64,000 nucleotides of DNA from Phoronis australis (taxonomy: Eukaryota > Animalia > Phoronida): NCBI GenBank assembly GCA_002633005.1, contig NMRA01000262.1, positions 322,298-386,297 of the forward strand, in the 5' to 3' direction. The position numbers and the translations under genes were made by a program. The notes beneath the pieces were generated by a model. The model did not search any database and had not been told where the DNA came from. It saw nothing but the letters and a program-made list of their open reading frames with translations. Positions 18,101 to 64,000 of this stretch are shown here, in pieces; the stretch's first letter is position 1, and every line of letters starts with the position of its first letter.

Positions 18101-21100
18101 TAATGGTTAGCCAAATTCATGCCATGCAACTTAGCCCAGAGGGTGTTCCTATAGAAGAGGTATATGAAAAGTGCTGCCCAAAAGGGTATTTTTTCACAGC
18201 AAAAAATACTCTTTTGATTTTCTAGAACAGAATCGTGCGAAAATGTGATTTATTACTCAAAATTACTCTCTAAGTGGGTAACTTTTTTGTCTGAGTTCAC
18301 TCTCTATCTAAATGGTAGGTATCCAAATTTTCGGGTGGCATCCCTCGTCCAAAAATATCCCTGGCCGGCCATGTCAGATACCACTTGTTTGTGATTTTGG
18401 AATTTATTTTGCGCTGTGATGTTGGTTTCATAAAATGTAAAAATGGGGCATTTCTCTCATATGCGGATTCAAAGTAAAATGCAATGATTTGGTAATATGT
18501 AACAGCTTGTTGCATTTTAGGAGGGGCTTAGCAAGGTAAAATGTAATAATGATTTAAAATGTAACAGTTGTTACATTTTACAAAATTGTTACATTTGACA
18601 GTGTATCACCGAGACAGGGGTGCGGTATTAACTGAGTAAACAAGTATTGACAACTGCCCGTGAGTAAAGTTAATAAAATGCAGCCTATGGAGGAATGACC
18701 AATCTGATCATTACTTTACCCCATGATTGGTGAAACACTTTTTGAAGCATATGACTGTAGCTGCTTTTGCATTACAGTAAGTGTGGACTTAAAGAAAACA
18801 ACAACGGTTTTAAGACTTGACATGTTTCGGTGTCATTTATTCAACATCATCTTCAGAAGTGAGAATACAGCGTGCACCTAGCTAGGCCCAGCAACAAGTA
18901 ATGAAGCACAGATACAGTCAGTTACAGAGAGTGACAATGAACTAGACCAACAATGACAACCTGTGGTGTGTCAGTTACCTATTGAGATTGGGCTTGCTCC
19001 AACTGATGTGTCACTTGTTTGCTTGGACCAGTTCACTTGGACTAGTGGACTTGGAATGCATTTGGAACTCAGTGTGATAGCCTATGGTCACAAAATGCCA
19101 CCTTTCTCACTTGACCAAACTAACATTCCGCTGTCTTAACTATAACGCTTCTTCGTACAAGAGATTGCTTCGCTATTGCAATCCTTTCCATCCAATACCA
19201 TGAACCACTGACTCACTCCAAAGGCTGATATGAGAACCTCAATTTCTGGTAACCAGCTAACGACACAGTGTGCACAAACTGGCAGGAAGAACTGAAGTTA
19301 ATTTGAGATAGTCGAGAAAAAGAATCTAAACTAAACCTTTCACTTAAATAATCTGAATAAATTTGGTCCTCTCACTTAGTCGGTCTTTTCGAGCGTACTA
19401 ACTTCAGTACCACCCTCAATTTAGACCGATCTAAATCACCTTTCACGTTGAGTCTAAAAGTTTTGTGGTTGAGAAAGAATGCTAGTCCACCATTCTAAAT
19501 TTGTAGAGCAAATGGCCCTTGAGTGATGGGATGTGTCTTCCAGGTGACTAACTTTCACTACATGTATTTATAACAGCATGAGATAATCGAATACTCAAAT
19601 GGCCCTTGAGTGATGGGATGTGTCTTCCAGGTGACTAACTTTCACTACATGTATTTATAACAGCATGAGATAATCGAATACTCAAATGCATGAATTAAAT
19701 GGTGAATATACACTGCTTAGCTTTCGATTAACATAGCTTAACAGCTGTGTATTACTAGAAAATAATTAAGTCCTTGAATTTTTCTTTTAGCTGTAAATGC
19801 AGATGGGTTTAACCTGTACCTCCTTGATGAGAAAAAAGAGGTAAGCTGAATTTTGAGTATGCCTACTTTCGTATATATAGCTGCTGCATGGCATCACTTG
19901 CATTTCATATAGAAAATTTATCTGTTACACATTCTTGGCAATTATTTAAGACTGAGCTAAGTTGTAGTGAGTATTTCACTGTACAAGTACAATTTTATTT
20001 CTATGTGCATGCTGGAAATTTAAAATCAAGAAAGCATTTGCAGCACCACATTTTATCCAAATGGTAGTGCCAGACTAATCATTCAGCAACCAAACAAACT
20101 ACATCATAGAGACCAGTAGAAATAAAGACTTCATTTCACCAAAGGTTGAAAGTTCAGTCTTGCGTGTCAGAGGGTCATAACTGATTGATGCAAACACAGT
20201 TCATTAACTTGGCTCATGAAAGTGGTTGTTAAGTCTGAATAGGAAAACTAATTAGCTGTAAGTCATCTGCAATGTTTTCACTCTATAAAACAATGCATAA
20301 AATAGGCATACAACCCATCTTAGGTGTGGCCAGACAAGAGTCATGCCTCATTGACATAACACTTGGGTGAATAATTGTGGAAATGGGCTTTTGGCTTGAA
20401 CGACTTTTTGCAACTGGAGCAAGTCAATATTCATGGATTGTTCTAGAACCCTCTCGACCCCCAAAACCTGTCGACCCCCTCGACCCATGACCTGTGGCAG
20501 TAGAGGTATTTTTTATGCTTTTACATATTTCATCTTGTTACGCGGTTGAGTAACTTTCCTTTAATTCTTACTGCCGTCACATGGTTGAACATGTACGTGC
20601 AGAGAGGTCGACGATCAGATTTTTGCAAAAATTAAAGCAGGTTGGGTATTTCATCATGATTCATGCTTCATTGTCGCCGATTTTGTCTCTTTATTGTAAT
20701 TATTCAGCGTCAGGTTATGGGATAGTCGTTAAAGTCGTAATGTATTTTACCCTTTTTAAAAATAATCTTGCGTCGGCCGCGCACCATACTAGGGCCTTGG
20801 GGGCCAAAGTCCCCGCTTATTTCACTGCTGCACAGCCCATGTCTTGATGTAATAAATTCGAATTTTGAGTTTTATGTTGCATGAGACATTGTAATAGTGG
20901 ATGAAACACATTAGTGTACTCTCTGGCTCAGCACAGCAGGTCTCATGCAGACACAGTAGGTCTCAGTCATGCAGACAGAGCGCATGGCAGCTCACATTCC
21001 AACTTTCCTGGCCAGTTGTAGTTGTGCTCTGATTCGTCAAACTGAAAAATATAGTTTGTGATTCCTGTCTATCATCAACATTCCGGGCCTGCTATGGGAG

Positions 21101-27100: not shown

Positions 27101-30100
27101 CTCCAAGCTGCCATTTCTGAGATGTAGCTGTTCCTAGGTTAGCCAAACTTGGACATTTCTGAGATGTACTGTTCCTAGGTTAGCCAAACTTGGACATTTC
27201 TGAGATGTACTGTTCCTAGGTTAGCCAAACTTGGACATTTCTGAGATGTACTGTTCCTAGGTTAGCCAAACTTGGACATTTCTGAGTTGTACACAACCTC
27301 AAGGTGCTATATTGTCACATTGCCTTAGCAATCAATTCAAAAAAGAGGACTGGTATGGTTCAGTTTGGGTGAACATGACAACAAATTAACAGAAATGAGA
27401 GATTAAAGGCTTTCTGTAAGTTGTGTAATCAGTAATGACTGAAAGATGTATGAGGCACACGTTTTGTTGACAGATTATATGCATTTTGAATCAAAAGTAG
27501 ATACATTATCGTATTTATTCTGTGGTATAACCGAGAAGTCCTTCTTCCTCGTATGTAGATAGCGACTTCCACCCGCTTTGGTAGAATCTTGCCATTGGCC
27601 TATTAACCATTTGATGTCTAAATCAACACAGGAACATCAGATCAGCGGTAAAGCACGAAATCCAAGTCTTGATAAACGATAAAATCTGACCAACTGCATA
27701 GTATTGCATATAAGTATACCTTGGCCCACCTAATATCACTTACCAGTTGGTGAAGCAAAATAAATTAAAACTAATACTGGATTTATATTTCAATTCAGCG
27801 ACGTTGCATCCTCATTGCGAGGATTTTCACTAACAACTGCTGGGGTTATGAGCTGAGCACCACCACGGCAGTTGCTGGTGAAAGGTGATCACAATGAGGA
27901 CGCAGTGTCACTCAGTTGAAGTGTAAGACCAGCATTAATTTTAATTTATTTTGCTGTAGTTCTAAGAATTTGTTTTGCTGATAATATCACTTACCCTTGA
28001 AACCATTTGTGAGGAGAAATTTTTTAAATCTTAATGTTGATCATATCAATATATTTCAATTCGCCTTTTGACAAATGACAACTAACTTGTGAATTACAAC
28101 TTACTGAGAAATCACATCTAATAATGAGTAAAATTCCTAGTAGATGAGATCAATTATCGTTACTTTAAGTAATGAAAGCAGTGACGTTTTACTGAAAGCT
28201 CCAAAGTGACAAAAATGTAAATAGAAGTTGGTTAAAAGAATGTTATTCCAGAGTGCTTGTCACTGCTGGTTTGCTCGCTTGCTCACAGTTTTGGACAGTT
28301 TATGGAAAAATAATGTTGGAACGTCTACTATATATCGCCTTGTTTAGAGTTAAAGTTTTCACAAAGTCTCTGGGAGTGGTATTAAGGACACATTTTTGAA
28401 GTCAAAATTGTAGACTAAGACAAACTGATTATTGCTACAATAAGCTGTTTTTAGAGTTTGATTTGCACCAGTATCAATAATTTTCTATGCACTTTTACAA
28501 AATTGTTAGCTGAGTAGTTTCTAGAAGAAATTATAATGTACTTGTTATTGTCTAAAAATAGCTTTTATCACTTTTTGCTTTAAATTGGTAACTTAAAAAA
28601 ACTCTTTGCACAATTTTGTGTTCTGCGGTTCATCCAAAAAATAAAAATTTACGCTGATCTGAATGTTCATTTGGTTTCAGTTGTCAAAATTAATTGTGGC
28701 TTTCAGAATTAACCTGTCTGTTAATTCATCTTTACTTAAGGATGAATTACTAAAATTTGACCCAAACTTGATGGAAGTGATGTCTACTGACCTTCTACTC
28801 CCACCCCCCACTTAGCCAACTTGTCCCTCTCCCCTGGGGTTACTCGTATTCATTGTTGTATGGGGATGGGAGAACTAGCAATGTAATACTATGGACAAAA
28901 ATAAGGCTATAATCCAATTTGTGCCAAATTTACTTTACTTGTCTGGCTAAAGGCCAGGGACATTTAAACCCTCCTTTCATCATAATAAACAACTCTCCGT
29001 TTTGTAGTCAAGTTGGAGATGACTGCAGGGCTTTAAAAGAACTTACAGTATGTTATGGCTCTACCATGTGTCATTTCATGCACCAAGCAATCTCTACCAT
29101 GTATCATTTCATGCACCAAGCAAGCCCTACCAAGTGTCATTTCATGCATCAAGCAAGCCCTACCAAGTGTCATTTCATGCACCAAGCAAGTCCTACCAAG
29201 TGTCATTTCATGCACTAAGCAAGCCCTACCAAGTGTCATTTCATGCACCAAGCAAGCCCTACCAAGTGTCATTTCATGAACTAAGCAAGCCCTACCATGT
29301 GTCATTTCATGCACTAAGCAAGCCCTACCACGTGTCATTTCATGCACCAAGCAAGCTCTACCATTTGTCATTTCATGCACCAGGCAAGCTCTCAAGAAAT
29401 AATGAAATGTCAGTTCAATGCCCACTCTGAATCACTTCTGGTATAAGTATGGAACAAGTTGAGACCAATTGGATTGGTACTGGTATAAATAAAAAATATG
29501 CATTAGCTTTGATTGCAATTTGAAGGTGGCCAAATACAACAGTGAATGAAACTGTTGAGTTTCTTAATGTACAATAATGTGAGTGTCAAAAAGTTAATAT
29601 CCTGAAAATTCTAAGATACATTAGCATTATTTAGCGGAATTTGGGGTTTAACCTAGACAAGAGCGATCTCCTGAAAATAACTCGATAAGAGTCATAGCTT
29701 TTGGAAGAATCTATGGTAGGTTCATATATAAACAATGATAGTGGAAGGAGGGTAACTTTGTTGACAAAAAGCCTTCAATTTGGTAGGCCTATATAGTTCA
29801 AATCCCCAGTACCACACCCTCATACAAATTGGGGCGAGTACCCTGGGGGCTTGTCTCCCATCTGGTTGTATTCTTGTCTGACTCCTATGTTCACATATAC
29901 ACGCAGACTAACTTTCACCGTTTTGTCTAACTTTTACCTCGACAGATTTCTGGAAATTACCTGGTTTGGGGCGGCATTGCTGTGTACTATGCTGAGGTAC
30001 AGACTCTGTTCTTGAATCACAACACTTGTTGTAGAGTTCTCAAAGTTGCTGAATCCTTGTTTTTTACCAGTGTTCATTGGTTTTGAATTGTTTGTGGCAA

Positions 30101-33100: not shown

Positions 33101-36100
33101 CCCACAACCCTCTTGACCCACAACCTGTAGCAATAGATATATCTTTGCGCTTTTATACATGTTTCATAATCATATTATGTAGCTGAATGACTTTCCCATG
33201 AGACTTACCTACACGCAAACCTGCTCTGGCTGAAGTCTGGTGGTTAAAAAACAGAAAGTTATGTATAACATCACCTGAAATAGCAAATGGTGAGGGTGCT
33301 ACCATTGTCAAGTAAATAGTTCCATGAGTGGCTAACAATGGCCATGCAGTTTTACTAAACTTAGGGAGAACATGACGGGATATAATTTCACGTTTTTATT
33401 ATTTGCTTTCTGTTGTATATTCGTTTACAATATAGTCCATGTACCATTGAGTTAATTTTAGTTAACAGTTTTTTCAAACTAGTTACTGAAGAAATTACAT
33501 ATTTGCCATTTTCTCACATTCTCCCCCAAAAACTTGAATCTGCCATTCACTGAGGAGCAGATGAGAGGATTACACTTTGCTGGAAACGACATTTGTAACA
33601 ATGATAGGACTTTGATTTGATTTGGCTGCGTTGTTTTTTTTTTCTGTTTTTGGCTTTCAAACTTGCCGAATCGACTCTTAATTGCAGGGAAAAACCAATG
33701 GAGCTCACGGCCCGACTCGTTGGTCCTGCAAGTCAGCACTTGTTCTATGTTCAAACAGAGTCAAGCTTGTGTAGACTGGGCCAAGGGGGTTGTGGGCTGG
33801 GGGTCGAGGGGGTCATGGGTCAAGGGGGTTGTGGGTTGAGGGGTCGTGGGGTGTGGGGATCAAGTGGGTTTTAGTTCAATCCTGCATTTATCAACAATCA
33901 CTGCTTACACATGACCAGTGCAACTTTTTGACATGAATTCTGTTTTAGGTCCATATTCCAAGACATAGTCAGCATGGACACACTTATTATGAAAATTATG
34001 GTAAGTGAACATTTAGTCCAGACTATCAAATAAGTATTTCTTAAGTTTGAATTAAACAATGTGAATTGGGATGACTGGACATTAACCCACCTTTCATCAC
34101 AAGCAACATATACGCAGCTTTCAACACAAGAAACATTTTTTGTCTTTAACCACTCACTGTCATCATGGTGTTTAATTGTTTCTTAGTCAAAATAGGTGTG
34201 ACTTGGGCTTCAAACAATCTGACTGTTTGTCATTGCTAAAGACCATTCTGTATAATTTGGTTTGTCACGGCTTGCCATTTTATTCATCACACATGGTCTC
34301 AAGGGATAACAAACTGTTAGTTCTTTGTAAGACCTATATAAACTCATTTGAGTAAGTCAAGTCAAGACCATTTCTATAGTGGAAAGCAAGCCTATGAATG
34401 ATTTGTCAGAGTTGGAAACAAGATGGTGCTTGCTATATAACTGCAAGTTGCATATGTTTGTTATTATGTCATGATTTTTCCATAATTTGGTAACAAGCGG
34501 GTTACAAAAAGCCATACCCATTGTTGTTATGTTTACTTTTGTGGTGAGGGGCAAAATTTTTTTTATTGTTTCTTCTTTAGAAACTGGATGAATGTTTATA
34601 AAGTATTACGGCTCTATAAGTTTAATGGTAACAGGATGCCTTATTGTTAAATAACCTTTAAAATAAGTAGTAGACCCATAAACCTAATATTTTTAAAGTA
34701 ATTAATGATCACAGAATCTTGTGAATGAAATCAATGCCTAGTGATGATTGAAATATCATAATTGCGTTTTTTTTCTAAACCACTTTCCATGGGGATTGCC
34801 AAATTTTTTGCAATCACCCTCTTTCACCGGAAACTTGCAAAGTCCGTTTCTGTACTTAGAATTGATGTTTGTGGAAATAATATGACAATCTCCGTGAAAA
34901 GTAGATTATTTAAGAAACCCAATCACATCATTGTAAACTTGTGGGTATTATTCTAGTGCACGTGAAAAGACTCTTGATCAAGTGGATTTTTAAAATATAT
35001 ACTTGTGTGGAGCTACTACTATTAATATGTAGTCATTTCTTGGTAATGAGGTTGTATAGTTGTTGGTAGAGTTCTTGGTAATGAGGTTGTATAGTTGTTG
35101 GTAGAGTTCTTGGTAATGAGGTGGTATAGTTGTTGGTAGAGTTCTTGGTAATGAGGTTGTATAGTTGTTGGTAGAGTTCTTGCTCAATGTTGAAATATAT
35201 CAAATGGTCTTCATAGTCCTTTAAAGGTATTTAAGGGCTTGTTATCTTGAAAGTGTTTTAGTCATTTTGGCAGATTTTACCATCTCCAAAAAGTATTTTC
35301 AACCTCCTTAGTTGATTTTTATTAAAACGATATTATTAATAATAATTATTCAAATTGCAAGTGGGATGCTCTATGCAATGCAAAGACTGTGTGTCAGATT
35401 GTGGTTGAATTGTTGAATTAGTTTTATTTCCTACTCTGTTATCTTTGCTTATTGACAAATGGTTATTCTGGGGTTATGTGGATATTTTGATTAAAGTTAA
35501 AATGTATCAGAATAGAGAAGCAACAAAACGCTCCTTACTTAAGTCAGGACCTTTCTTAAGTCACCTTACTTAAGTCACCTTACTTAAGTCAGGTGACAGG
35601 TGAACTCACTGCATCAATCTTCTTCTTGTCATTTTCATTAATTTCATGTTTATTGACATCCGCTAAAGATTCAAAATTTGTTTTGTAGCAATTAAACTGT
35701 GCCAAATTTAATACAAAATGCCTTTGAAAAAGGTAACGTTTATGTGATATGAGTGAGAAATGCATAGTGCAGCAATAACACCATTGACATGTCTTCATAT
35801 TTCAACATAGAATTTTGCCCAAAAACTGGTGAATGCTGATCGGGCTTCCCTGTTTCTCTTGGATAACTCGACAAATGAGCTATTTGCACGGATATTTGAT
35901 GTGGGCAATGGGATTGCCCAGAGTGGAGATGACCAAGAAATAAGGTTCAATAGCATGCTCTCGTGTATACCTTCCTACACTCAGTACACTTGCCAAGCCT
36001 AACAACTAAGACAGAAATTGGCTTCCAATTTTAGCAATACAAGAAGCTGTCGCCTCATTTTCTCGAAAGTTCTTCTGAAACTCATCTTTTCCCACAAATA

Positions 36101-38854
36101 TGTTACAATTCCAGTTTTACCTCTGGCTCAGATACCATCTGAGCTTCAGGCTAACAAGACAAATTAAAATCATGCTCAGACTTTGTTAATGGTGAATGCA
36201 GTTGAAGATTGAACACCTTTTCAAAAGGTTGGCAAGTGTGTGTTTGTTGTATTGACCATCTGTCTGCACACACAGGGTCAATGCACATCAGTGTCATGAT
36301 TGTATTATTTTGACCCTACAGCCCACACCCTCATTGTTTTGGTAGTCATGACAACTCATCAGATGGGGCAAATGATGCTTGTTATCCTCCTGCAGATTAA
36401 GAGCCCACATGCACGTTTGTGCTTGTATGCCATTATATGCCATAAAGAATTTTTTCTTCAAGAATTATGATAAAGCAGAATTCAAAATTTAGTTGAGAAA
36501 ATCATGGGCCCATTAGGAACGCTCCGTAGGATTGAAGAATGAGTAGCCTCAAAGTAAAATGTGGGAATGATCAAATATTTGCAGAAAACGACAATAACTG
36601 CAGTGAATTGGGAAGAGCTTAATCCAACGGTTTTGAGCTGACAATGAGTATAAGGTGTGAACTACTGCACAAATTTTGCATCACAAAAATATGATGAATT
36701 TTGAATTGAAGTAAAAGTACTGATCTCCATAGCACCAGATAGCAGCAATAGTCAACAATCCCATATGATCAGAGCACATTGTGTTGTAAAAAAGTCTCGA
36801 TGTTATGCTTTGTGAAAACATGCCGCTATCAATCAGACCTCTTACCCCCCAAATTATTATTGTTTGTTTGTATGTTTTCAACAGAATTTTGCCAAAAAGT
36901 TAGTACATGCCGACAGAGCATCATTGTTCTTGGTGGATAAGCTAACAAGGGAACTCTATGCCAGAATATTTGATACCGGAAAACTGACCGATGAGTCGCA
37001 CAGTCCCAGTACTGAGCGCGAGATAAGGTTTGGCATCTTAGTGAATTTCTGCTTTCACTCTCAGTAATGTTTCCTACTTGGCTGATTTGTTTTATTGTAC
37101 CAACTATAAGTTTCCTCTTGATAACAAACCTACATTGTAACAATCCATTTCAACAGCACTGTGTGCTCTTAAATGCGCTGTGGTGGAAAATAAGCTTATT
37201 ATTTTAAACCTATGACTGTCTTTTGCTCCCATGTCTTTTGTTGTACTTGTGGCCTGCTTTAGTGATTTTCCTTTTTGTTGTTGTTGTTGTAGTGATGTTC
37301 TTTTTGCTTGCTCACTGCATTTTTTATTCGTTTGTAGTCAGGTAAGTGTAGTCTGAGTACTTTAAATATGACAAAATTTGTTTTAATTATTTCTGATACA
37401 GTCTCATTGCTAGTTTTAGGTTAATTTTTGTTGCAAATTTGTCATAGCTGCCGTCACTGCAATTTGTCATAGCTGCCGTGACTGCAATTTTTTTTTGTTA
37501 ATTATTAAATCACACAATTGGCAGGCTTTGCAATGTCCATCTGTTTTTGTGTAATGCCCTTATTGTGTGGAGCCTAACTCAACAGATGGCAGTCAAATTA
37601 TGCACTGACAGTCATGTCACTGGTTTGGAGATTTGAATCTCAGTATGTCTAATCTCTGACCCATTTCTTGTGTTTTAAAAAATACTCTTTATTTGGGTCA
37701 GATATTGTAGAATACAGTTGTGTCTTTTTGAAGTTTCCTGTTGCCATGGCGAAATTCATTGGCTTCGGCTTCTGCACAAAATAATTGCCAAAGTTTCTTA
37801 TAACAGTTTTCAACAACTATTCAGTACAAACATTTATTTCTGATGAGAAAATTGAAGAAAATATGGTTGAAGTCCTCCATAATGCTTGCCAAATAGGTCG
37901 AGATGAATTTCATTTATCTAAATGATTTGAATTAAAACTTTGTTTTTTGACGTAGGGCAGGTTTATACCAGCACGAATGAAATTGTAGTTACAATACTTT
38001 AAACACTCATGGCATTTTTTATAATGTTTTTATAATGTTTATTACGAAATCTTCGATACAATGAATATTCATAACCCAGAAAGCACCAAGAGGCATTATA
38101 TCTGGGTTAAAAAAGTACAAAGAAATCTATATACAATTATTTTACACAAAATAAGAAATCTATATACAATTATTTTACACAAATACATAAATTAAAAAAA
38201 AAACTGTTGTTAAGATTACAATGACACATGGTTACGAAAGTAAATAAATCATTTTCATACACATGTACACAATTCTATCCACTCACACAAAGAGATTTAA
38301 TATTATAAAGAAATTTCATGGCTATTCCTGGTTCATTATTTACAATATTCCACATGTAGCCTGTATGATTATCACTGGATTCAGTCGGATAACATGGATT
38401 TCATTCTATGCAACAAGTGATATTAATTCTCTGAGCATAGTCACTCATGGCTACTTTGTGTGCATTCAGATAAGGAAGGGTATATATTTAAGACTTACCT
38501 GTGACTTGTCCATGTAGGTTTCCTATGGATAAGGGTGTGGCAGGGTACGTGGCCTCTACTGGCGCTATACTCAACATACCTGATGCCTACGCTGATGACA
38601 GGTTTAACAGGTATGCAGCTGTTATCTATATAAAAAAATTCCAATATATTTTAATATTATCAACCTTTAAGAAAATAGCATGTGTATTTTTGTCAAGGAT
38701 GTCCATAAGAATTTCAATAACATATTGCAAAATGTTCGCCTGAGGCTATATGGAGTTGACAGCCGGAGTACGCTTTGAAGTTTTTAACACTGCCAAAGCA
38801 ACGTATGCAAGGTTGAGGAAAATCAGCATCTTGGAAATGTTTTTATGCACCCAC

Positions 38855-47800: not shown

Positions 47801-50800
47801 AGTGGAACTACTTGGTCTAAATTGATACAAACTAGGTTGTTTTTGGGTGGCATTCTCCTTTAAGACTACTTTTATGATGGCCTAAAATCAGAACTTAAAG
47901 CCTAACTTCAAGGGAATTTTGTTATTTAATATATATTGAGTTAACCAGACAGTCCTAGCACAGCCTTAGCAAAATAAGAAAGCGTGAGTTTAATCACTAA
48001 AACGTAGGCCCGTCAAATGATTAGTGAAGTTGTCGTTTCTTGCCATATAGCGTCACCACGAGAACCCAGCACATTAAACAGCAAAAGGCTGATAACAGTT
48101 GCATTGAATAGAGGTCTGAATAGAAAACATTGAGTATCTGTGTTATTCGCAGCTGTTTAAATTAAAATTAGGCAATTGTTTTGGTGACGTAAAAAGCATT
48201 TGCCAATAACCCAAACAGCTTATTACATTTGGCACTTAAAAGCGATGCTCTTAACATAGTCAGAACCAAGTTTACTGGTGTTACTGTTCAAGATGGGCTT
48301 TAATGTCATTCAAAGGATGTAGCTAATTACTACTTGCAAATTTTAAGACCTTAAAAATAAGCTTATTTGAATTTTCACCTTGAAACTGTAGACAAACTTA
48401 CCAACTAAGATTTTATCAGTGAGAATCTTTTCCAGTTGTCTTCTTAGTTGGCTATTACTAAACATCATGCTGGGTAAGATTCTTGCATTAGAGTTCAAGT
48501 TTCACCGAATCAGATTTGCGGATTTTTTCACTGCCTATGGTTCAATCCTGCATGTTTGAGCCATCAGGATTAGACGCAAATTTTCAAGATTGATAAAATC
48601 TAAAACATTTTTGCAAATTCTGACTTTGTGTGTTTGGCAGAGGCTGTTCAATAGATTCAAGAAACTCTTGAGAAAAACTAAATGTAGCCGTGAAAGGCAG
48701 CGGAATGGATTGATTGGTTGCTCTAAGACTTCATATTGGGAATGGATTGATTGGTTGCACTAAGACTTCATATTGCTTTAATTCATACCCATTTGTAGTT
48801 ATATGACAAAATCAGGAGATCGGAGCAAAAGTACAAGGTAGCTTGCTTTAATTCATACCCATTTGTAGTTATATGACAAAATCAGGAGATCAGAGCAAAA
48901 GTACAAGGTAGCTTGCTTTAATTCATACCCATTTGTAGTTATATGACAAAATCAGGAGATCAGAGCAAAAGTACAAGGTAGCTTGCTTTAATTCATACCC
49001 ATTTGTAGTTATATGACAAAATCAGGAGATCGGAGCAAAAGTACAAGGTAGCTCTAGAAGTGCTCTCTTATCACAGTCAATGCAGTGAGCAAGAAGTGGA
49101 AAGATTAAAAGACAGGGTAATCAGTGCACCTGTTGAAGATTTCACCAGGTAAGGTCACCTGTGCATACAGAGTAATTGGAGAAAATACTGCTTCTTCCTG
49201 ACAACTTGTAGTGACTGGTCATTCTAGCTTTGATGATGAATTCTGGTTGTTGTAGTGACTGGTCATTCTAGCTTTGATGATGAATTCTGGTTGTTGTAGT
49301 GACTGGTCATTCTAGCTTTGATGATGAATTCTGGTTGTTGTAGTGACTGGTCATTCTAGCTTCTTTGATGATGAATTCTGGTTGTTGTAGTGACTGGTTA
49401 TTCTAGCTTCTTTGATGATGAATTCTGGTTGTTGTAGTGACTGGTTATTCTAGCTTCTTTGATGATGAATTCTGGTTGTTGTAGTGACTGGTCATTCTAG
49501 CTTCTTTGATGATGATTTCTGGTTGTGTTCAGCCCTCATCATGGGGAATTTTGAGTTATTTTGTTTGACTATTATTGGCGTGTACTATGCAACAAAATTT
49601 GTAAAGTTTTTGTATGTTTAAGAAACAGACATGAGCTCTACCATACTTAAAATGCTGATTCACTTGTTGGCAATTTTTGATGTCAAAAACATTTTGGTAG
49701 CACCTGGTCGCCATTTTAGTTTTTGTCAGAGTTTATCTGAGGTGCATTCCATAGATGCAAGAACCTCATAAAAAGTCAAGACCTGATGCACGACCACTTA
49801 AAATCACCCATAACTCATAAGTGAAACGCAGGTGCTCCATGAGTTTGCTGTTCCTTACCAGCATACGCTAGCAAAATGTCATCCCTTGTCCACTGATTAT
49901 TGTCAAAATGGCCAGACAGATTTTTGATGGACCTTGACAGAGAGGTTTTATGACTGTGAGAAGCACCAGCCCAGTAAAGTTTGATGGCAAAATTACTGTA
50001 CTTAAGTAACATGAAACGTAATGTCACTCAGACTTTTGTGCAGTGTTTGAATAAATGTGCTGGCCCACCGGTCCAATGTGTCTGACCCAGCTGCCAAGTT
50101 GCTGGCCCTGCTTTTAGCTTCCTATCTACGTTTTTGTCCATCTTTCCTGTACACTAAATGTGCATGTGCGTATGAACCCCATTTTTTTCAGTAACTCTAG
50201 GTGAGGAGTTGTTGGTATGAACACCATGTAAGCTGTGGTTATTAAAATAAAAGTCTTTAACTGGATTTAACCAATATATTTTTGCAAAACACATTTCTCA
50301 CTGCACAGAACTCTAGGCTAAAGTTCTATCAATAAACAATTTAGTGAATGGGGGGATCACTCATATATATTGCTCACAAGGTTCAAACTCGTTAGCATTG
50401 AATTAATTGGTTATGAAATCACATCCACATATATAAAAGGGCCTATATGTGAAAGTTTGCTGGCCCAGCCACAAATCCACTGGCCTCGGATCACCGGGTA
50501 TTTCGAATGCTGCTTATTTGTAAAAATGATCTTCATAAATGTATGTTTCCCATTCCAGGTACGATTTTTCACCATGGGCAATTGACAATGATGAGAAGCC
50601 ACTGTATGTGATAAAGATGTTCAAGGCGCTCTTTGATGCCAGTACTAAGTATAGGTAGGAGATAGTTGATAGTGATTGTCAAGTGTAATACAAGCTTAGT
50701 GTGACACATGTCTGCTGCAGGAATCTTTGGATTCTGCAGTGCAGTTCTTCCTGTTCAAAATAAAGCTGCATATCGCTCTGTTTAGCTGGATAAAAACTAA

Positions 50801-53800: not shown

Positions 53801-56800
53801 TCTGAAGTTTTGAGTTGTCTCAGACTAGCTCAAATCTAATGGCCATCATGTAAAAACATGATCACATAATATAAAAAATAGAAGCTTATTCTAAATTTGG
53901 AATACTAATCTCAAAAATACTTTCAAATTCAATTTTCAAGATTCCATGTCCTGAAATTCATTTTACTTTCTTTTGCCTTACGCTAGAGCCTGGTGTTGTT
54001 CGTTGCCTGTCTCTGTCATGACCTGGATCACCGTGGCAAGACCAACGCGTTCATGGTAAAGAGTGCCTCCCCTCTGGCCGCCATTTACTCTACATCGACT
54101 ATGGAGCACCATCATTTCAACCAAACTGTCTCAATACTACAGCAGGATGGCCACAATGTGTTCCGATACTTGTCACCTCAAGAGTACAAGCAGGTCAGTG
54201 GATGGTTTTCTGTCTGTGATACTGCAGGGTAGCCAGGGGTGTGTTCCACAGTGCGAAACACTCAACTGGTCGCTTGCAGCCAAAATATTTGGCTTGTGTG
54301 AATTTCTCCATTTTTCTGGGCTATGCTAGTAAGGTTGTGAGCTTTCTCTCAACACACTTGCCTTTCATCTTGTCAAGCTTTCAATTAGAATCTTATTTCT
54401 AAGGAATGCACCTTGGTCTTCCTCTCTTGTGGCCATTAGAGCATTCTCATCACTATTGTACTTTTTCATGAATAAACTTCTTTTACCACAGGTTGTATTT
54501 ACATTCCCACACATTGCAATTCTTTTCTTAAAAATATATTTTTGCAATGTACGAATTTCAGTTCAAACTCTTGAACGAGCAAGAGTTAGGAAATGTGCTT
54601 TTAACTTAAAACTGTTGAAATGTATCAATACTGTGTAACAATACTGTGTAACAATACTGTGTATGTATATGTATCAATACTGTGTATCTGTATGTATCAA
54701 TACTGTGTATCTATATGTATCAGTACTGTGTATCTATAGTACATGAGGAAAAATGTGCTCTGCAGAATGCTTAATATGACTTTTGAGAAAAACATCATTT
54801 TCAGATTTATTCAAACTGACTGTGGAAAAAATAATAATTCTTAATCCTATTTTTCAAAGGCTCCCTGCTTAGAAATTTCATCATTGTATAATTTGCTTAC
54901 TGTTATTCTGTACAAGACAAGCCAACAGCAAAGAAAATAAACTTTTCTGTAATGTTATTTTTTGATGATTAATGTGTCCAAAGGGAAATTAACTTGCTTG
55001 CCATACTGTGTTCCAAATTAAAGACTACTGTATTCAAACAAAAATAATGACCAACATTGTCTTTTTTCGTTTTTCAAATGCTCACTGTATTGCCAAAATG
55101 TTAAAAGTTTCATACTAATATATAGTTTTCAAATTATCAATAATTGTGTTTGGACACTCTCGTTGCAAATTTTACTAAACTTTTGATAAAATGAAAGTTT
55201 AACTGTTCTGCAACATTGTTTTCTAATTTGAAGAAACTTCATATTCTCTTCTATTGTAAAAATCACGCCTGCTCCAAACTAGAAGAAACTAAATGTTTGC
55301 AACAGCAAATCAAACTGAGGGTCATATAGTTGAAGTTCCTGGACCAGTTCATATACTTTTGGTTGCAGTGTTCGCAGAGTTGGAAATGTTAAATAACTTT
55401 GTAAACTTTCCTTCTCTTCACCCCATTGTTTGTATGCCTTTAAGATAGCGAAATCATTTACAAAATTTTCAAGTAAAGTAAAGATTTTATTTTTACCTTA
55501 TGCATGCTTTGACAAGAGAAAACTGGACAGTGCTCCTAAAATCATAAAAATATGTTGGTTAAATTCAGAATTGGTCAATTCAGTTTTGTTTCTTACTATG
55601 AAGAATGAGCTTGTTTGCAAAGTCTCTGGTGGCATTTTTATTGTCCATCTTTCCAGAGAGAATATTATTTCACGACTATATAGCTATTCTCTAACACTGT
55701 ATTGTACCACAATTCTCCTACACTGTGCTGTACCACTATTCTCCTACACTGTGCTGTACCACTATTCTCCTACACTGTGCTGTACCACTATTCTCCTACA
55801 CTGTATTCTCCTACACTGTGTTGTACCACTGTTTTCCTACATTGTGCTGTACCACAATTCTCCTACACTGTGTTGTACCACTGTTTTCCTACATTGTGCT
55901 GTACCACTATTCTCCTACACTGTGCTGTACCACTATTCTCTAACACTGTGCTGTACCACTATTCTCCTACACTGTATTCTCCTACACTGTATTCTCCTAC
56001 ACTGTGTTGTACCACTATTCTCTAACACTGTGCTGTACCACTATTCTCTAACACTGTGCTGTACCACTATTCTCCTACACTGTATTCTCCTACACTGTGT
56101 TGTACCACTATTGTCTAACACTGTGCTGTACCACTATTCTCTAACACTGTGCTGTACCACTATTCTCCTACACTGTATTCTACACTGTATTCTCCTACAC
56201 TGTGTTGTACCACTATTCTCTAACACTGTGCTGTACCACTATTCTCTAACACTGTGCTGTACCACTATTCTCCTACACTGTATTCTCCTACACTGTATTC
56301 TCCTACACTGTGTTGTACCACTATTCTCTTACGCTGTCTTGTACCATGACTATTCTAGTAATAATAAACAATCTATTCACACCAACCCCTGGTCTCCTTT
56401 TCATCTCATGCGATGCATGATTTTTATCTGGTCCAGGTGTCATGAATGAAATAGTAAGTGTAAGCATTATAATTACAGAGAGTGTACACTACCATAATTC
56501 AACTCCCCATTTCTACAGGAGTTTTCATTGGTAGTCCATGGATATTCCTTATTGAAATTTAAAATATGTTTACTCTGAAAAATGAGAATGCTTTTGTTTA
56601 TTTTCAGGCACTTGGAAAAATCAAAGAGTGTATCTTAGCAACAGACCTGGCCTTATTCTTTGGGAACAGAGCAAAACTTAAGGAACTTGTTGATCAAAAG
56701 AAATTTGACCCTACAATACTGAATCACAGGTAAAAAAACAGCTGCAATTTAAAGTGTTAAGACATGCAATTAACCCACTTACTATCGCACTCATCTGATT

Positions 56801-59800
56801 TAAAGCCCAAGATGTATAAATTGAAAATGTCAAATGTCAGGATGTAGAGAAATTTCCCTGTTGAAATGAAGTACTCATACAAACTGAAAGCAACTTGCTT
56901 ATTTTCACACAAAATGACTGAAAACAAGATTTAGTGTTACTGCCAATTTCATAGCTGATCCCAAGTTATGCCAATGTCCACCAAACTTTGATGAGATATA
57001 GTTTGATCAATTTTTTTGAATGGAAACAAGAGACTTATCAGAATATTTGGTCTGTAGAATTTGGGACATTGGACATTCAGTACATAATTGTATACAAGTT
57101 GCTGACTAAGTTGTCTTTGGGAGGACATTATGTTCAAGTTGCTGACTTAGTTCTAGTTTTGAATCTGTTCTTTTATCATTTTTGCGTGTAGAAGGTTAGT
57201 GGAGGCCATATTGATGACTGGATGTGACCTGTGTGCAAGTACCAAACCCTGGGACATCCAATGCAATACTGTTAGCGTTATATTTGAGGAATTTTACCTC
57301 CAGGTAGAGATCAATTGCCATAGATTACTGTCAATGCATGAGTCACTGTAGTGAAGAGTAGAGTTGTAGAAACAGTTTTCTACTGCATTGGAGGTGGTTA
57401 GTCTCACCTCCATGTACAATAATACCTGCTATAGGTTGGCAAGGCAATGTATGGGTGTTGTGAGTGGTGTGAGCTGTAGTCTATTTCTCTGAAGCCTGTA
57501 GTGATTTCTATTCTGAATATTAGAAGAAAACATGGGTTTATAGACTCTTTAAATTGCTTTTTTGAATGATTGGTCTATTACATCACTTCATTGTCAAAAT
57601 AATTACATAATGAGACAGTGAGAGACATTCACTCAAGCAACTAAGGATGACAAAGAAGGACAATCAGGACAAGAAAAATTGTAATGTATTTTATAGTATT
57701 ATGATGGTTGTTCTTTTTATTGATATAGTTATTATAATGTTGAATTTAGATGGTTTACAATCATGGCACACAACTAAGAGTTAAGAGCAACATTGTACGA
57801 AACAAGACAAGGCATGCAATAGTGTCAGTGCAAATAATAAATATATTAATAGATAATAAAACTATAAAGGATATTTTCATCGTGTTTGGTAGGTTTATTC
57901 CAAAATACACGAATACACAAAACAGTAATAATAAGTAAATAATTAAAGTAACAAATAAGATAAGGACACACTACAGACACATGGTAATAGGAGCCTATCA
58001 AAGAACTTCCCTTCATTGCTCTGTGATGCTTTGTAGTGTCAAAAAGGTGTGCTCCATTGCACGTTTCAAATGTCTGACACATACCATCATTATTTTTCTT
58101 TTGCCATAGTCGATAAAAAACGAATGAAATTTTTGTCATCACCGACGATTATTATCACTGAGAAGTAGTTACTTGTGCACACTTTAAAACCAGTAATTTC
58201 TTTTTGTCTTCATTGTTTTATACTTTACAGTGACCTCAACACCATTACTCTGAAACTTGTTTCTTGTTTGTAAATGTTATCTTAGAACTCCATTTCTGTG
58301 TATTTCTATTAATGACTCATATTTTACTACCAATTATCAGATCAGAAAAGCATCGGCTATGAATGATTGCATTTTGTTGCAAGGTTAGATAATTGTTTGG
58401 AATTCAAAACCAACAAAGAACTGGGAAAATGACATTGCTTTCATGCTTCACAATATTTAAATTTAATTTTTTTTTCAAAATTATTCACCAGGTTCATACG
58501 TACACTCGCTATTTTGTTTCATGATTTTCCTTTCTCACTCTCAGTTGCTGCCTGTTTTCACAACCTATTTGGCTCACACTTTTCCACTCTACTTTAACTG
58601 GTAGAAGCCTTTCCCCGCTCTCCACCTGGCAATCTTGCTCAGAGTGAAAAGCTACACTTGGAGCAGATCTGCTCCTATTTTTTCAGTGTATGTCAGGGTC
58701 TTATACCATTATTGCTAGTGCATGCTTTGATCAGTTCTTTACATCCTGGGTCCAGATCTGTTCATAATTGCTAGTGCATCATGGGCTTAGATGAACTCAT
58801 TTACAGTACAAGCTAAAAGAAAGCAGACACCATTTCCACATCATGGCTATCAATTCCGCCTGCATTTTTTTCCCGCTGAACTCGAACTGGAAATAACACA
58901 CCACGATGCATAATAACAGCTGTAATCTGTCATCATAACTCTAATGACATCATACCGGTCCATTACTTTGAACAACCAAGTACTTATGAGGCAACAACTC
59001 AACTACCAAAGTACATAATGGCACACTGCCCAATTACAAGATTTTTGCCCAGTGACAATCATAAAAGTTTAACTATACCTTTCAATCACGCAGAGTTTGG
59101 GTATTTTCTGTTAGCTGTTAGCGGACTGAGACCAATGCCTACGTACAGCTGAATTATGAAAAAAAAAATTTTACCGTAATCAGTTTGCAAAATACTTGCA
59201 TGGGATAAATATTTCTGCACGATTAGAGCAAAATTGTTCTCATGAACATTCTGATTCTGTCGCGTATTTTGTAAGCAAGACCATGTACCTTAAATGATGA
59301 ATTTGCGAAGCCTCAAAGTACTGCACAGGGCATCGGAATATGTTAAATTGTGCCCTTTAGAAAAAGATAACAATGTTACTAGGTGTTGTAATACCATAAC
59401 AAATAACAAAAAACAAAACATCAAATACAATCCTTTCTTCATGTGCTCAAAATTATCTTCATGAGACCAGGGACGGAAAGACATCAAATAATTAATAAAG
59501 CAACCGAAAGAATGAACTGTAGACCAATGAAAGCGGAAGGCGGAGATTTTTGTGGAAATTGTACATAAGAGTGTGGGCCTAAATCAGCGCTCTGGTGTTG
59601 TGTCAATATCATGAACAACATGAAATCAGTAGCACAGTACATGTACATGAATCAGTTTTAATTCGATGTAACTTGAGACAGAAACGCGGACTTTTGCATG
59701 TATAAAGTAGCAATGAGTGACCTAATTACAGTGTAACTGTCGCTTGCATTGGGATTCATCTTTTAAAGTTAACTTGAGGTTTGTTCACGATTGATTAGAT

Positions 59801-62800
59801 CAGAAATATAGGAACAACTAGCTATTCCACTTGAATTAAACATGACATGTCTACTCATACATGACATGTCTACTCATACATGACATGTCTACTCATACAT
59901 GACATGTCTACTCATACATGACATGTGTACACTTATACATGACATGTCTATTCATACATGACATGTCTACTCATACAGTTAATTCCGCTAAACATGACAT
60001 TTCTACTCATACAGTGCAGTTTCGCTAAATTATGTCAACTGAAATAGCATGGAATTTTATCTGCTCAGCAGGCCTGACTTGGAATACCTTTGTTTTTTCC
60101 GTTTACTTTTGGCTTGAACTGTATTAACTAGTGCATGCTGGGATCAGATCTGTTCACATTACTAAGAGTGCATATTGTAGATTCATCACGGCTTGGAATT
60201 TTCCTCTTTTAAGAGGATTACCTCTTTTTTGATTTCCACTTGTTTCCAGTTTCCCCTTTTTTTGTTTTTTTTTTCATTTTGACTTGATTCACTCAAAAAT
60301 GTTTATTTCAGTTAATTTTTACATCACAAAAATATCTCCATCGCACTATCCTATTTATTTGTGGAACGATACATCACCTGTCCTCGTTTTTGTCATTGGT
60401 CATTCCAAGCCCTGATTCATAATAGCTATAGTGCATGTTCTTGGGATCATATCTGTCGTGTAGCAGGATCAGATCTTTTCACATATCTGACTAGTGCATG
60501 ATGGGATCTAGGTTGCATCCTATAGATACAAGGCTGTAGTCACGTGATAGTGTAATCATGTGCTTCCCTTTTAATGGATGGCAACATTTTGATGGTGAGG
60601 AAGTACATGATAACAATTCTCTCACAAGAAACTTAATTGGTCTCAGGAACGCAATCCAGATCTGTTCACATAACTAGGGGATGATGAGGTCATATCTGCT
60701 CATATAACTAGTGCATGATGAAGTCATATCTGTTCATATAACTAGTGCATGATGAGATCAGACCTCTTCATATAGCTAGTGCATGCTTGTCGTTGTTGCT
60801 ATCGTCGTAACTGTTGTCATTCTAGAGAGATGTTGATGTACCACAGTATGACTGCTGCTGATCTTTGCTCAATGTATAAACCATGGAACCTCCAGGTCAA
60901 GTTAGTTAACATCATTATGGAAGAGTTCTGGCAACAGGTAATGCATGTTGTAGCAACACAATATGGTAGTTATATAACCATTAAAGCCATTGGAAATTAA
61001 TGTTTTTTTCTAAATGTTGTTATGTGTAGCTTATTGTGAGATAGCCTGTAGCCTGGCTGCTACATGAAGTAGTGACATTTTGTGAGCTTATTACATGCCA
61101 TCTGTTTATCATGTTGCCTAATGATGGAACATAAAATCATTCATTTGAATTTGTTCACAATGTCTTCATGATGACATCCATTTTTATTTTCTGATAACTT
61201 TCAACATAAACAAGCAGATTCTCCTGGAACAGTACCCAAACTTTTGCTTCTTATTTTCTTCCCAGTAAAATCAGGGACTTCAACTTTTGTAGACTGTCAA
61301 TTTTTAGTATTAAGCTTATGCTGATGAATGTTTTTCAATCCCTGAGCGTTTTTGGCGGCATGCCAGCAGTTTTCCCAAATGTTCCTTGCATTAGTCAAGT
61401 GAAATAATCTATGTTTGTAAAGATGGCAAAATTTGACAAGGTTAAGCTGGTCCATCCTACACAGCGATACTGGAATCTTGCTGTATTTACCCAGGATGTT
61501 ATAAACATCCGTCGGAACATTTGCTCTCTCCTTTTCGTGCCATTGGAATTACACTTATTTGTTGTTGTCTGATTCTTTTCAAGTTTTATTCGTAATTCCA
61601 ATGCTAATAAAGTATTACTGCTGTGTTATAGGCTGCATCTCCGATGTGAGAAATTTTAATAAACTGGACAGTCAAATGCCCATGTATACGTGATGTGATA
61701 TTCTTTGCCTTACTGACATCAATGAGAGACACAAAAATGTGCATGATTTCCAAAAAAGAGGTCACAGGCGTTTTTATCTCTGGGACAAATGAGAGTTCTA
61801 TTGCCCAACTGAGACTAAACCTTACAAATATGAATTCAAGCACTTTTACAGAAGGTGTTGGAAATGTTCCCCATCGGCATCTAAGCACAATTTAATTCGC
61901 ACAGCTCTATGGAATACATTAGTCAAGAATGAAATTGACAAACTACTGAAAAAACTCTTATAGGCACATTGAGTGCTACATGAAGTTTTGAGCCCCAAGC
62001 TCAAGCAGAAAAAATTATTACGAAATGTTTGTGGCCAAGATGTCTAAGGAGATTCACCTTGTATTCAAACTTTTGTATGTTTTTTCCACAAATATAAGCA
62101 GTGCACTATGTTAGTGTGAGTCACAAATACTTATGTTCACTTACAACCATTTCAGGGTGATGAGGAGAAGACACAAGGAATCCAACCTATAGCTATGATG
62201 GACAGAGCCAAGGCACACCAGCTTCCTCAGAGCCAGGTACTGTTTTAACAAGCACTTCCTGCAATACCACAGTGCTCTTTTGATTCTGCAGTATTTACCC
62301 ACAAACCTGTGCATTTGCTGGGCACTTCCCTCACAGCTGTGCACTGCTGCTGTGTTAATAACTATAGTTTGCCATTTGTCATCATTCTTACGCCAATAAA
62401 ATTTTAAGTGAGTTGCAATACAAACTCAAGTCCCTGGGATCCACACACATAGTTACACTAGAACAACTTGCACTAGTGCAACTTACCATGGGCGGCGCAG
62501 CACTGAAAAAAGTGGGGACTATCAGCCCCCCTGTGGTACACCGCCCATAGACCATGGGTGCCAGAGCACTGAAAAAAGTGGGACTATAGCCCCCAGCCCC
62601 CCTATGGTGCGCCGCCCATGCTTACCCCTCTTTTAAGTGGAGCTTCCACATATATCCAATAACTGGGCCAGGTGCCTTCATCTATTCTCACTCAAGTCAA
62701 GGTAAAAATAATTCAAATTAAGTTAGTGTGTAGGTAGTTAATAGAGAAGATATTCTGGACACGTCCTAGTAAGTGCACACCACCAGGACAAGTAATGCCA

Positions 62801-63318: not shown

Positions 63319-64000
63319 ATTGTGGGATATCACATTTTACAGCAATTGCTTTGATACCAGTCATTTACTTCTGCACATTTAATTTCACATTGTGAAACGT
63401 ATGTCAGTTGTTGACAATAATTGTCATATACCATATTTGCAATACGATGAAGGGAGCACCTTGCTACTTTCTGCATAATATTACTTTTAGACTGTGACAT
63501 GCAGGTTAATAGTCAGGTGTGGAACAAGAGGGGGCCTACAGGGTTCAGAACTCCCCATCTGAGCTTTTGCTGTGTTGTAATAGAAGAATATAATTTGGCA
63601 GTCTCTTGTGAAACACTTGCAGTAACTGAAGGAAACTGTGTGCCATTGACAATAGATGGCGCTGGCTTCACAATGAGAATTTTGAAAGGTATACTAAGAA
63701 AAAAGGGACAAAAAACAAAATCTCCACTTTTCACCCCAAAACCACCACTTGTTTGCCGATGCACAACTAAAACCAACATGAGATTTTGAAACCAAATTTC
63801 CTACCAATTCCAAAACTGGTTCAAAAGTACTGTCAACCAACTATTTCTTTTGCAAATCTGGCTACCTAAAATCGCAGCCAAAATCTCGTTACCCAGCCGT
63901 GCAAAATTGCAACAGGGGCCGCCATCTTGAAGAAGAGTGCAGCTACAGCCAAGCAAGTGATGTTTTTCATTTTCAACATGTTCACAAATACAAACAAACC

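Follow-up and report, generated by a model that had tools for sequence, protein, structure and literature searches.

The 64,000-nucleotide stretch of Phoronis australis contig NMRA01000262.1 analysed here (the window) carries a gene coding a phosphodiesterase of the PDE10/pde-5 type, in which two homologous exons, 21a and 21b, offer alternative versions of one segment of the catalytic domain. The intron between them holds a cluster of TGCATG words, the DNA form of the motif recognized by RBFOX splicing factors. This cluster is real but was over-counted in an original prediction made from the sequence alone, and it is an addition of this lineage rather than a conserved switch of the exon pair. 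The reading tentatively favoured here, at a little short of an even chance, is that exon 21b is subject to a putative lineage-specific RBFOX silencer, built in part by a repeat.

The exon pair and its splicing

The gene codes for a protein of GAF-GAF-PDEase organization, and the exons found in the window match named pde-5/PDE10 proteins along its length. The catalytic domain of one relative (P0022) has PDE10A as its best PDB match. The peptides of 21a and 21b are identical at 15 of 37 residues. Either exon taken singly preserves the reading frame, while both in one message lead to an early stop. The two had been put forward as an alternative pair, and they are true homologous alternative exons: RefSeq models with the a and the b form at identical borders are found in Tubulanus polymorphus, Crassostrea virginica and Mytilus edulis. 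A metagenome scan yielded 18 loci, 14 of which are real, with a upstream of b in seven distinct lineages (false matches L015-L018 and the intronless L014 were removed; L001 and L002, as well as L003, L004 and L005, count as one lineage each). In a tree of 74 exon peptides, built on 37 columns and with rough support, a single group of 37 rows (100/95) unites the b exons of molluscs, an annelid, nemerteans, rotifers and scanned loci; four named proteins whose exon pattern was unmatched are omitted. The cnidarian, deuterostome and ecdysozoan rows lie outside this group, these rows being cluster representatives, so that b is not thereby absent from those animals. Within spiralians the a-then-b arrangement is ancient; it was in place before molluscs, annelids, nemerteans and rotifers diverged. 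From this tree, the animal itself is likely a spiralian.

Exon 21 spans a metal-binding Asp and a helix that align to residues 755-789 of human PDE5A. Five of the PDE10A active-site residues listed in PMC12571622 fall within it as judged by alignment spacing, and two of them differ between the a and b classes. The position of PDE10A Val678 is occupied by Ser in 21a and by Met in 21b (class-wide mostly Ser/Asn in a versus Met in b), and that of Tyr693 by Phe in 21a and by Met in 21b (class-wide mostly Phe versus Met). Note that the donor of exon a departs from the consensus in eight of eight cases, the window and the seven lineages (GTATAG, GTATAA, GTAGTG, GTATTC, GTACTG twice, GTACAG and GTAGAG); such donors are a possible conserved feature of the exon switch.

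The splicing of the pair was followed in three stranded RNA runs of a single study under the same species label (X5, X6 and X7; tissue not given; 18-19% of each run used), a joint being listed when at least one run supported it by 3 or more reads from 2 starts. Read numbers in X5/X6/X7 were 5/1/0 for 20-to-21a, 2/3/0 for 20-to-21b, 3/0/0 for 21a-to-21b, 4/1/0 for 57680-to-21b and 3/8/3 (14 in total) for 21b-to-22. Both exons are used and 21b is the productive form in these runs, with small counts, while 21a was seen solely en route to non-productive messages. The segment 57304-57680 probably extends 21a at its 3' side and brings in an in-frame stop; the donor that ends it lies 377 nt past 21a, and a TGCATG word at +32 sits between both donors. 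The mutual exclusion originally proposed thus stands as regards a homologous pair that shifts the frame when joined, and fails as regards strict exclusion: 21a-to-21b joints (3 reads, one run) and 57680-to-21b joints (5 reads, two runs) were read, and the exclusion is therefore not steric. Leaky exclusion is not peculiar to Phoronis, since the tail of oyster model P0024 corresponds to exon b in a shifted frame (26/26 steps, shuffles at most 3).

The TGCATG cluster and the 34-bp repeat

The 21a-21b intron is 3522 nt long. Direct inspection of the sequence finds 10 TGCATG words inside it and one at the 21b donor, and all 11 originally predicted positions are exact. The background of less than one word given with them holds true only for single-base composition (0.67-0.74): Markov models of orders 1-3 trained on the window expect 1.7-1.8 words, and the 60354 nt of the window outside the intron hold 34 words, a rate of 2.0 for a length equal to that of the intron. 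The remainder of the 64-kb window, together with DNA read depth, serves here as stand-in for genome-wide introns. The raw excess is accordingly 10 observed versus 2.0 expected (p 4e-5). Seven of the 10 intronic words lie within copies of a 34-bp unit, in the context CTAGTGCATG (six exact, one with a mismatch), which bears out the earlier estimate of about seven sites that are not independent. Only 3 of these 7 fall in the intact tandem array at 60660-60785; the others belong to degenerate copies further upstream (Table 1).

Array and degenerate copies consist of head-to-tail repeats with a unit in the 10-100 bp range that defines minisatellites, and the exact core of the unit occurs nowhere else in the window. 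In DNA contigs of run X1 at 90% likeness, the array has a depth of 7.8-8.2 versus 9.8 for unique flanks; X1 may be the source sample. The unit being single-copy in the DNA reads, it is a local minisatellite and not a dispersed repeat at 90% identity, a level at which older diverged copies could escape. It is thus not the common genome-wide repeat that the original prediction had named as speaking against itself. The unit copies are interrupted by an element resembling a miniature inverted-repeat transposable element (MITE), with 15-nt inverted ends, a 6-bp direct repeat at each side, a DNA depth of ~10000 versus ~8-10 nearby, and loose read ends at 60190 and 60414-60417. A search with the hexamer masked in the unit gave 10 matches in the intron, one of them at noise level. 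The hexamer is kept in 55/60 bases versus 218/280 elsewhere in the unit (p 0.008), a comparison of 10 diverged copies whose anchoring favours the hexamer.

The position of the words relative to splice sites is the main ground for a regulatory reading. Three of them, all in the 34-bp array, start at -114, -80 and -46 relative to the 21b acceptor, and two lie outside the repeat, one 32 nt past the 21a donor, as had been predicted, and one at the 21b donor. The three upstream sites are within 115 nt of the acceptor, as claimed, but to place them in the branch-point zone was loose. The final AG ahead of the acceptor is at -48 and a single branch-like word follows it, so the branch point is likely the A at -16 and the nearest motif lies ~25 nt upstream of it. 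TGCATG is found within 150 nt in 3/4 flanks of the pair versus 3/41 other flanks of the gene (Fisher p 0.005, or p 0.03 when the array flank is left out), and within 50 nt in 3/4 versus 1/41. At the window rate, three flanks with TGCATG within 50 nt would arise by chance with a probability of 8e-5, which rises to 0.002 if the array flank is omitted. These tests of flank position are post hoc, having been chosen once the data were seen. The published rule for clusters, at least 4 motifs in 500 nt on the transcribed strand, applies to the 5 TGCATG words in 60432-60785. The layout of (U)GCAUG upstream of a repressed exon (-114, -80, -46) and downstream of an enhanced one (+32) is also present. 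As the original prediction had argued, it agrees with the RBFOX map, in which an upstream site represses and a downstream site enhances an exon, and in which a calcitonin site at -34 blocks SF1 (PMC2777236). Such a layout is what silencing of 21b by RBFOX would require.

Table 1. Features of the exon pair, its flanking exons and the intervening intron (window coordinates)
Feature	Position	Strand	Basis
Exon 20, PDE10/pde-5-type phosphodiesterase	56608..56729	+	AG/GT ends, open frame; donor backed by RNA joints
Exon 21a, 112 nt, ancestral-type, non-consensus donor GTAGAG	57192..57303	+	translation; RNA; outside b clade
Stretch up to second donor (GT at 57681), joined to 21b	57304..57680	+	5 joint reads, 2 runs; start not observed
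TGCATG, +32 after 21a donor, outside repeat	57335..57340	+	sequence scan
Three degenerate 34-bp unit copies, one intact TGCATG (58719)	58667..58790	+	repeat/profile scans
TGCATG, solitary, mid-intron	59197..59202	+	sequence scan
TGCATG, solitary, mid-intron	59695..59700	+	sequence scan
Two degenerate 34-bp unit copies, one intact TGCATG (60132)	60114..60186	+	repeat/profile scans
MITE-like high-copy element amid unit copies	60187..60414	.	inverted pair, DNA depth, flanks
Degenerate 34-bp unit copies, TGCATG at 60432 and 60495	60415..60510	+	repeat/profile scans
34-bp tandem array	60660..60785	+	Tandem Repeats Finder: period 34, 3.7 copies, 86% matches, score 182
21b acceptor region	60786..60825	+	no AG from -47 on, A of the branch-like word at -16; branch point inferred
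Exon 21b, 112 nt, spiralian-type copy	60826..60937	+	translation; 14 joints to exon 22; b clade 100/95
TGCATG, +5 to +10 of 21b donor, outside repeat	60942..60947	+	sequence scan
Exon 22	62156..62236	+	RNA joints

A candidate silencer of exon 21b and its alternatives

The minisatellite multiplied one TGCATG word in the intron ahead of 21b. In the proposed mechanism, the silencer would be composed of the three nearest array copies and of the two independent sites by the 21a and 21b donors. Because 21a can be included without 21b being skipped, cells of some type would have to repress 21b actively for a productive 21a form to be made. RBFOX bound at -46, -80 and -114 could hinder branch-point recognition for 21b. 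At +5 it could compete with U1 at the 21b donor, this site overlapping the U1 pairing region, and at +32 it could favour the weak 21a donor. Messages with both exons would be cleared by nonsense-mediated decay. A bolder form of the proposal, which we regard as rather doubtful, is that a minisatellite private to this animal was recruited to act as a multivalent silencer through RBFOX and chooses the nucleotide-pocket exon of spiralian PDE10, its copy number tuning the enzyme by tissue and double inclusion serving as a poison route. The tuning of enzyme properties would follow from the differences between a and b at the Val678 and Tyr693 positions.

Several observations weigh against a silencer. 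In a neutral alternative, the array grew by slippage or unequal exchange, its TGCATG words and its proximity to the acceptor being due to chance. Exon choice would then depend on the weak 21a donor, another conserved factor and the decay of frame-shifted messages. When the repeat is counted once, 4 TGCATG words remain versus 2.0 expected (p 0.14) and the excess is gone. TGCATG ranks only 15 among the hexamers enriched in the intron, and the 14 above it come nearly all from the 34-bp unit or from a nearby 19-bp array (9.2 copies, 59840-60013), itself the source of several of the top-enriched hexamers. A 33-bp array at 29061-29389, taken as control, yields an equal count, with 9 TGCATG words on the antisense strand. 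GCATG clusters (4 in 500 nt) occur in the window twice in sense (19576-20007 and 60047-60943) and twice in antisense. Arrays by splice sites are common in the window, 5/28 lying within 150 nt of one. The insertion of the MITE-like element among unit copies also agrees with a neutral history. TGCATG is intact in only 5/9 copies found with the hexamer masked, and the most invariant letters of the unit are CTAG (39/40) and TAGTGC, offset upstream of the RBFOX word. Folding does not render these motifs more unpaired than other TGCATG sites. On the side of the RNA, the 21a-to-22 joint stayed below the threshold of 3 reads and 2 starts in all three runs, despite 6 reads at the 21a acceptor. A neutral by-product, which also agrees with the lack of motif conservation described below, is a serious possibility that we hold somewhat below an even chance and nearly as probable as the silencer. 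On this view, however, the +32 and +5 sites outside the repeat would have to be accidental (0.002-0.02), and no silencer of 21b is named.

Conservation of the motifs around the orthologous exons, proposed as a check of the original prediction, was tested and none was found. No other animal compared shows the repeat in its version of the gene. The cluster is absent in 11/11 orthologous loci, where TGCATG lies within 150 nt in 1/10 cases before b, 1/10 after b and 0/7 after a. Seven orthologous a-b introns (6792 nt in all) contain 5 TGCATG versus 3.6 expected (p 0.28) and 12 GCATG versus 8.1 expected (p 0.10), and show no conserved block or shared hexamer above shuffles. All relatives are distant and the a-b introns are unalignable even among the three nearest lineages. 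The comparison, as far as these sequences reach, therefore rejects a conserved cluster and says little on close relatives. A further alternative is an ancestral spiralian control by RBFOX, with sites that turn over in position and were amplified in Phoronis. Each of the 7/7 a-b introns has at least one GCATG. The first 250 nt after exon a hold 6 GCATG versus 2.1 expected (p 0.02, post hoc); yet the reverse complement, CATGC, is found there equally often (6) and the p value becomes 0.05 when compared with other donors. The introns have no hexamer in common above shuffles. Exonic GCATG, tried as a conserved mark of b exons and rejected, stays under the synonymous expectation (4 versus 5.6 of 12). 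Ancestral control is, on balance, the least probable of the accounts considered and a very unlikely one.

The repeat could, alternatively, act without RBFOX, either through TAAC/CTAG words serving as decoy branch points and acceptors, or by base-pairing to the exon or to the intron that precedes 21a, as in docking-selector systems. The near invariance of CTAG would suit decoys, as would the branch-like words at -119 and -85, each followed by an AG; no joint to an array AG is listed in the RNA runs, however. As for pairing, the unit profile matches the 3' end of 21b in reverse complement with a score of 15.5 versus shuffled maxima of 13.5-14.9, and a 15-bp helix between 56836-56851 and 58735-58749 (-20.9 kcal/mol) could loop out 21a. 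Against this, the fold of 60650-60950 has a z of -0.81 with the array unpaired with the exon. The top six partners found for the 3' end of 21b do not include the array and are themselves within background minima. No helix position is shared among 6 orthologous loci, and the 15-bp helix had no counterpart in relatives. An origin of the 34-bp unit as antisense copy of the 21b 3' end was likewise not upheld by folding or duplex scans. Such an effect of the repeat is considered improbable, and RBFOX silencing of 21b continues to be the reading that we tentatively prefer.

Related systems, other features and implications

The arrangement resembles that of exons 5B/5A of Caenorhabditis elegans egl-15, where ASD-1/FOX-1 act with SUP-12 through a UGCAUG just 5' of the exon to be repressed (PMC2777236). 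In egl-15 repression falls on the upstream exon, with binding described as proven, whereas here it would fall on the downstream exon, with repeat-built sites known from sequence. In C. elegans unc-32 7a/7b, controlled by RBFOX and UNC-75/CELF, a UGCAUG after the second exon is required to choose the first (PMC3585155); its counterpart here is the TGCATG at +5 after 21b. The unc-32 site is reported as kept in three Caenorhabditis species, with double inclusion undetected (PMC3585155), unlike the Phoronis pair, for which double inclusion was read and conservation was not found at much larger species distances. If the proposed silencing holds, the pair would work in the manner of egl-15 or unc-32. 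It is not classed with the egl-15/unc-32 kind because its exclusion is not strict, its motifs are not conserved and RBFOX binding is putative.

Mammalian (U)GCAUG clusters, such as those of Ntrk2, also comprise at least 4 motifs in 500 nt within repetitive sequence (PMC12435732). The Ntrk2 clusters are deep intronic, while the Phoronis cluster adjoins an acceptor. About 20000 such clusters are reported for each mammalian genome, and of the genes bound by RBFOX in mouse brain, 80% are without a crosslinking and immunoprecipitation (CLIP) peak on a cluster (PMC12435732); the definition of a cluster alone, therefore, does not show function. The TG repeat of CFTR and the 25-bp repeat of ABCA7 are likewise intronic tandem repeats by a 3' splice site that carry a word for an RNA-binding protein, and, unlike the Phoronis array, they come with associations between length and splicing (PMC10078293, whose main text does not contain the word "rbfox").

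Two further exons of the gene, both for the GAF-B domain (35811-35944 and 36885-37027), also form a duplicated pair, without TGCATG within 150 nt. Tubulanus isoforms hold either form (P0042 and P0046 versus others), so that this is probably another ancient alternative pair. Relatives show further duplications of catalytic exons, of exon 22 in oyster (P0020 versus P0036) and in L008 (557-640 and 1245-1328), and of the HDLDH exon in L009 (2530-2685 and 3410-3577); the window has a single copy of both. A 70-bp array (48773-49053) has the acceptor of the exon at 49009 and its first codons within the unit, and its 4 copies thereby yield four near-identical acceptors. In the region 19509-20007, five GCATG words within 500 nt form another sense cluster, built in part by an 87-bp duplication, and inside it lies a 50-nt exon (19791-19840) with TGCATG at -104 and +45. 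DNA depth identifies more high-copy dispersed repeats at ~61450-61760, 62480-62625 and 63780-64000.

What stands on firmer ground is the exon pair, which is ancient and exchanges 37 residues lining the PDE10 active site. Its a and b isoforms are already present in databases, while no description of it, nor of the 34-bp repeat, was found by title or abstract start in a literature search that left most subscription journals outside. If the motifs are neutral, they call for caution, since local minisatellites create motif clusters on either strand. If the silencer is real, a new repeat would have rewired the control of an exon pair older than the mollusc/annelid/nemertean/rotifer split.

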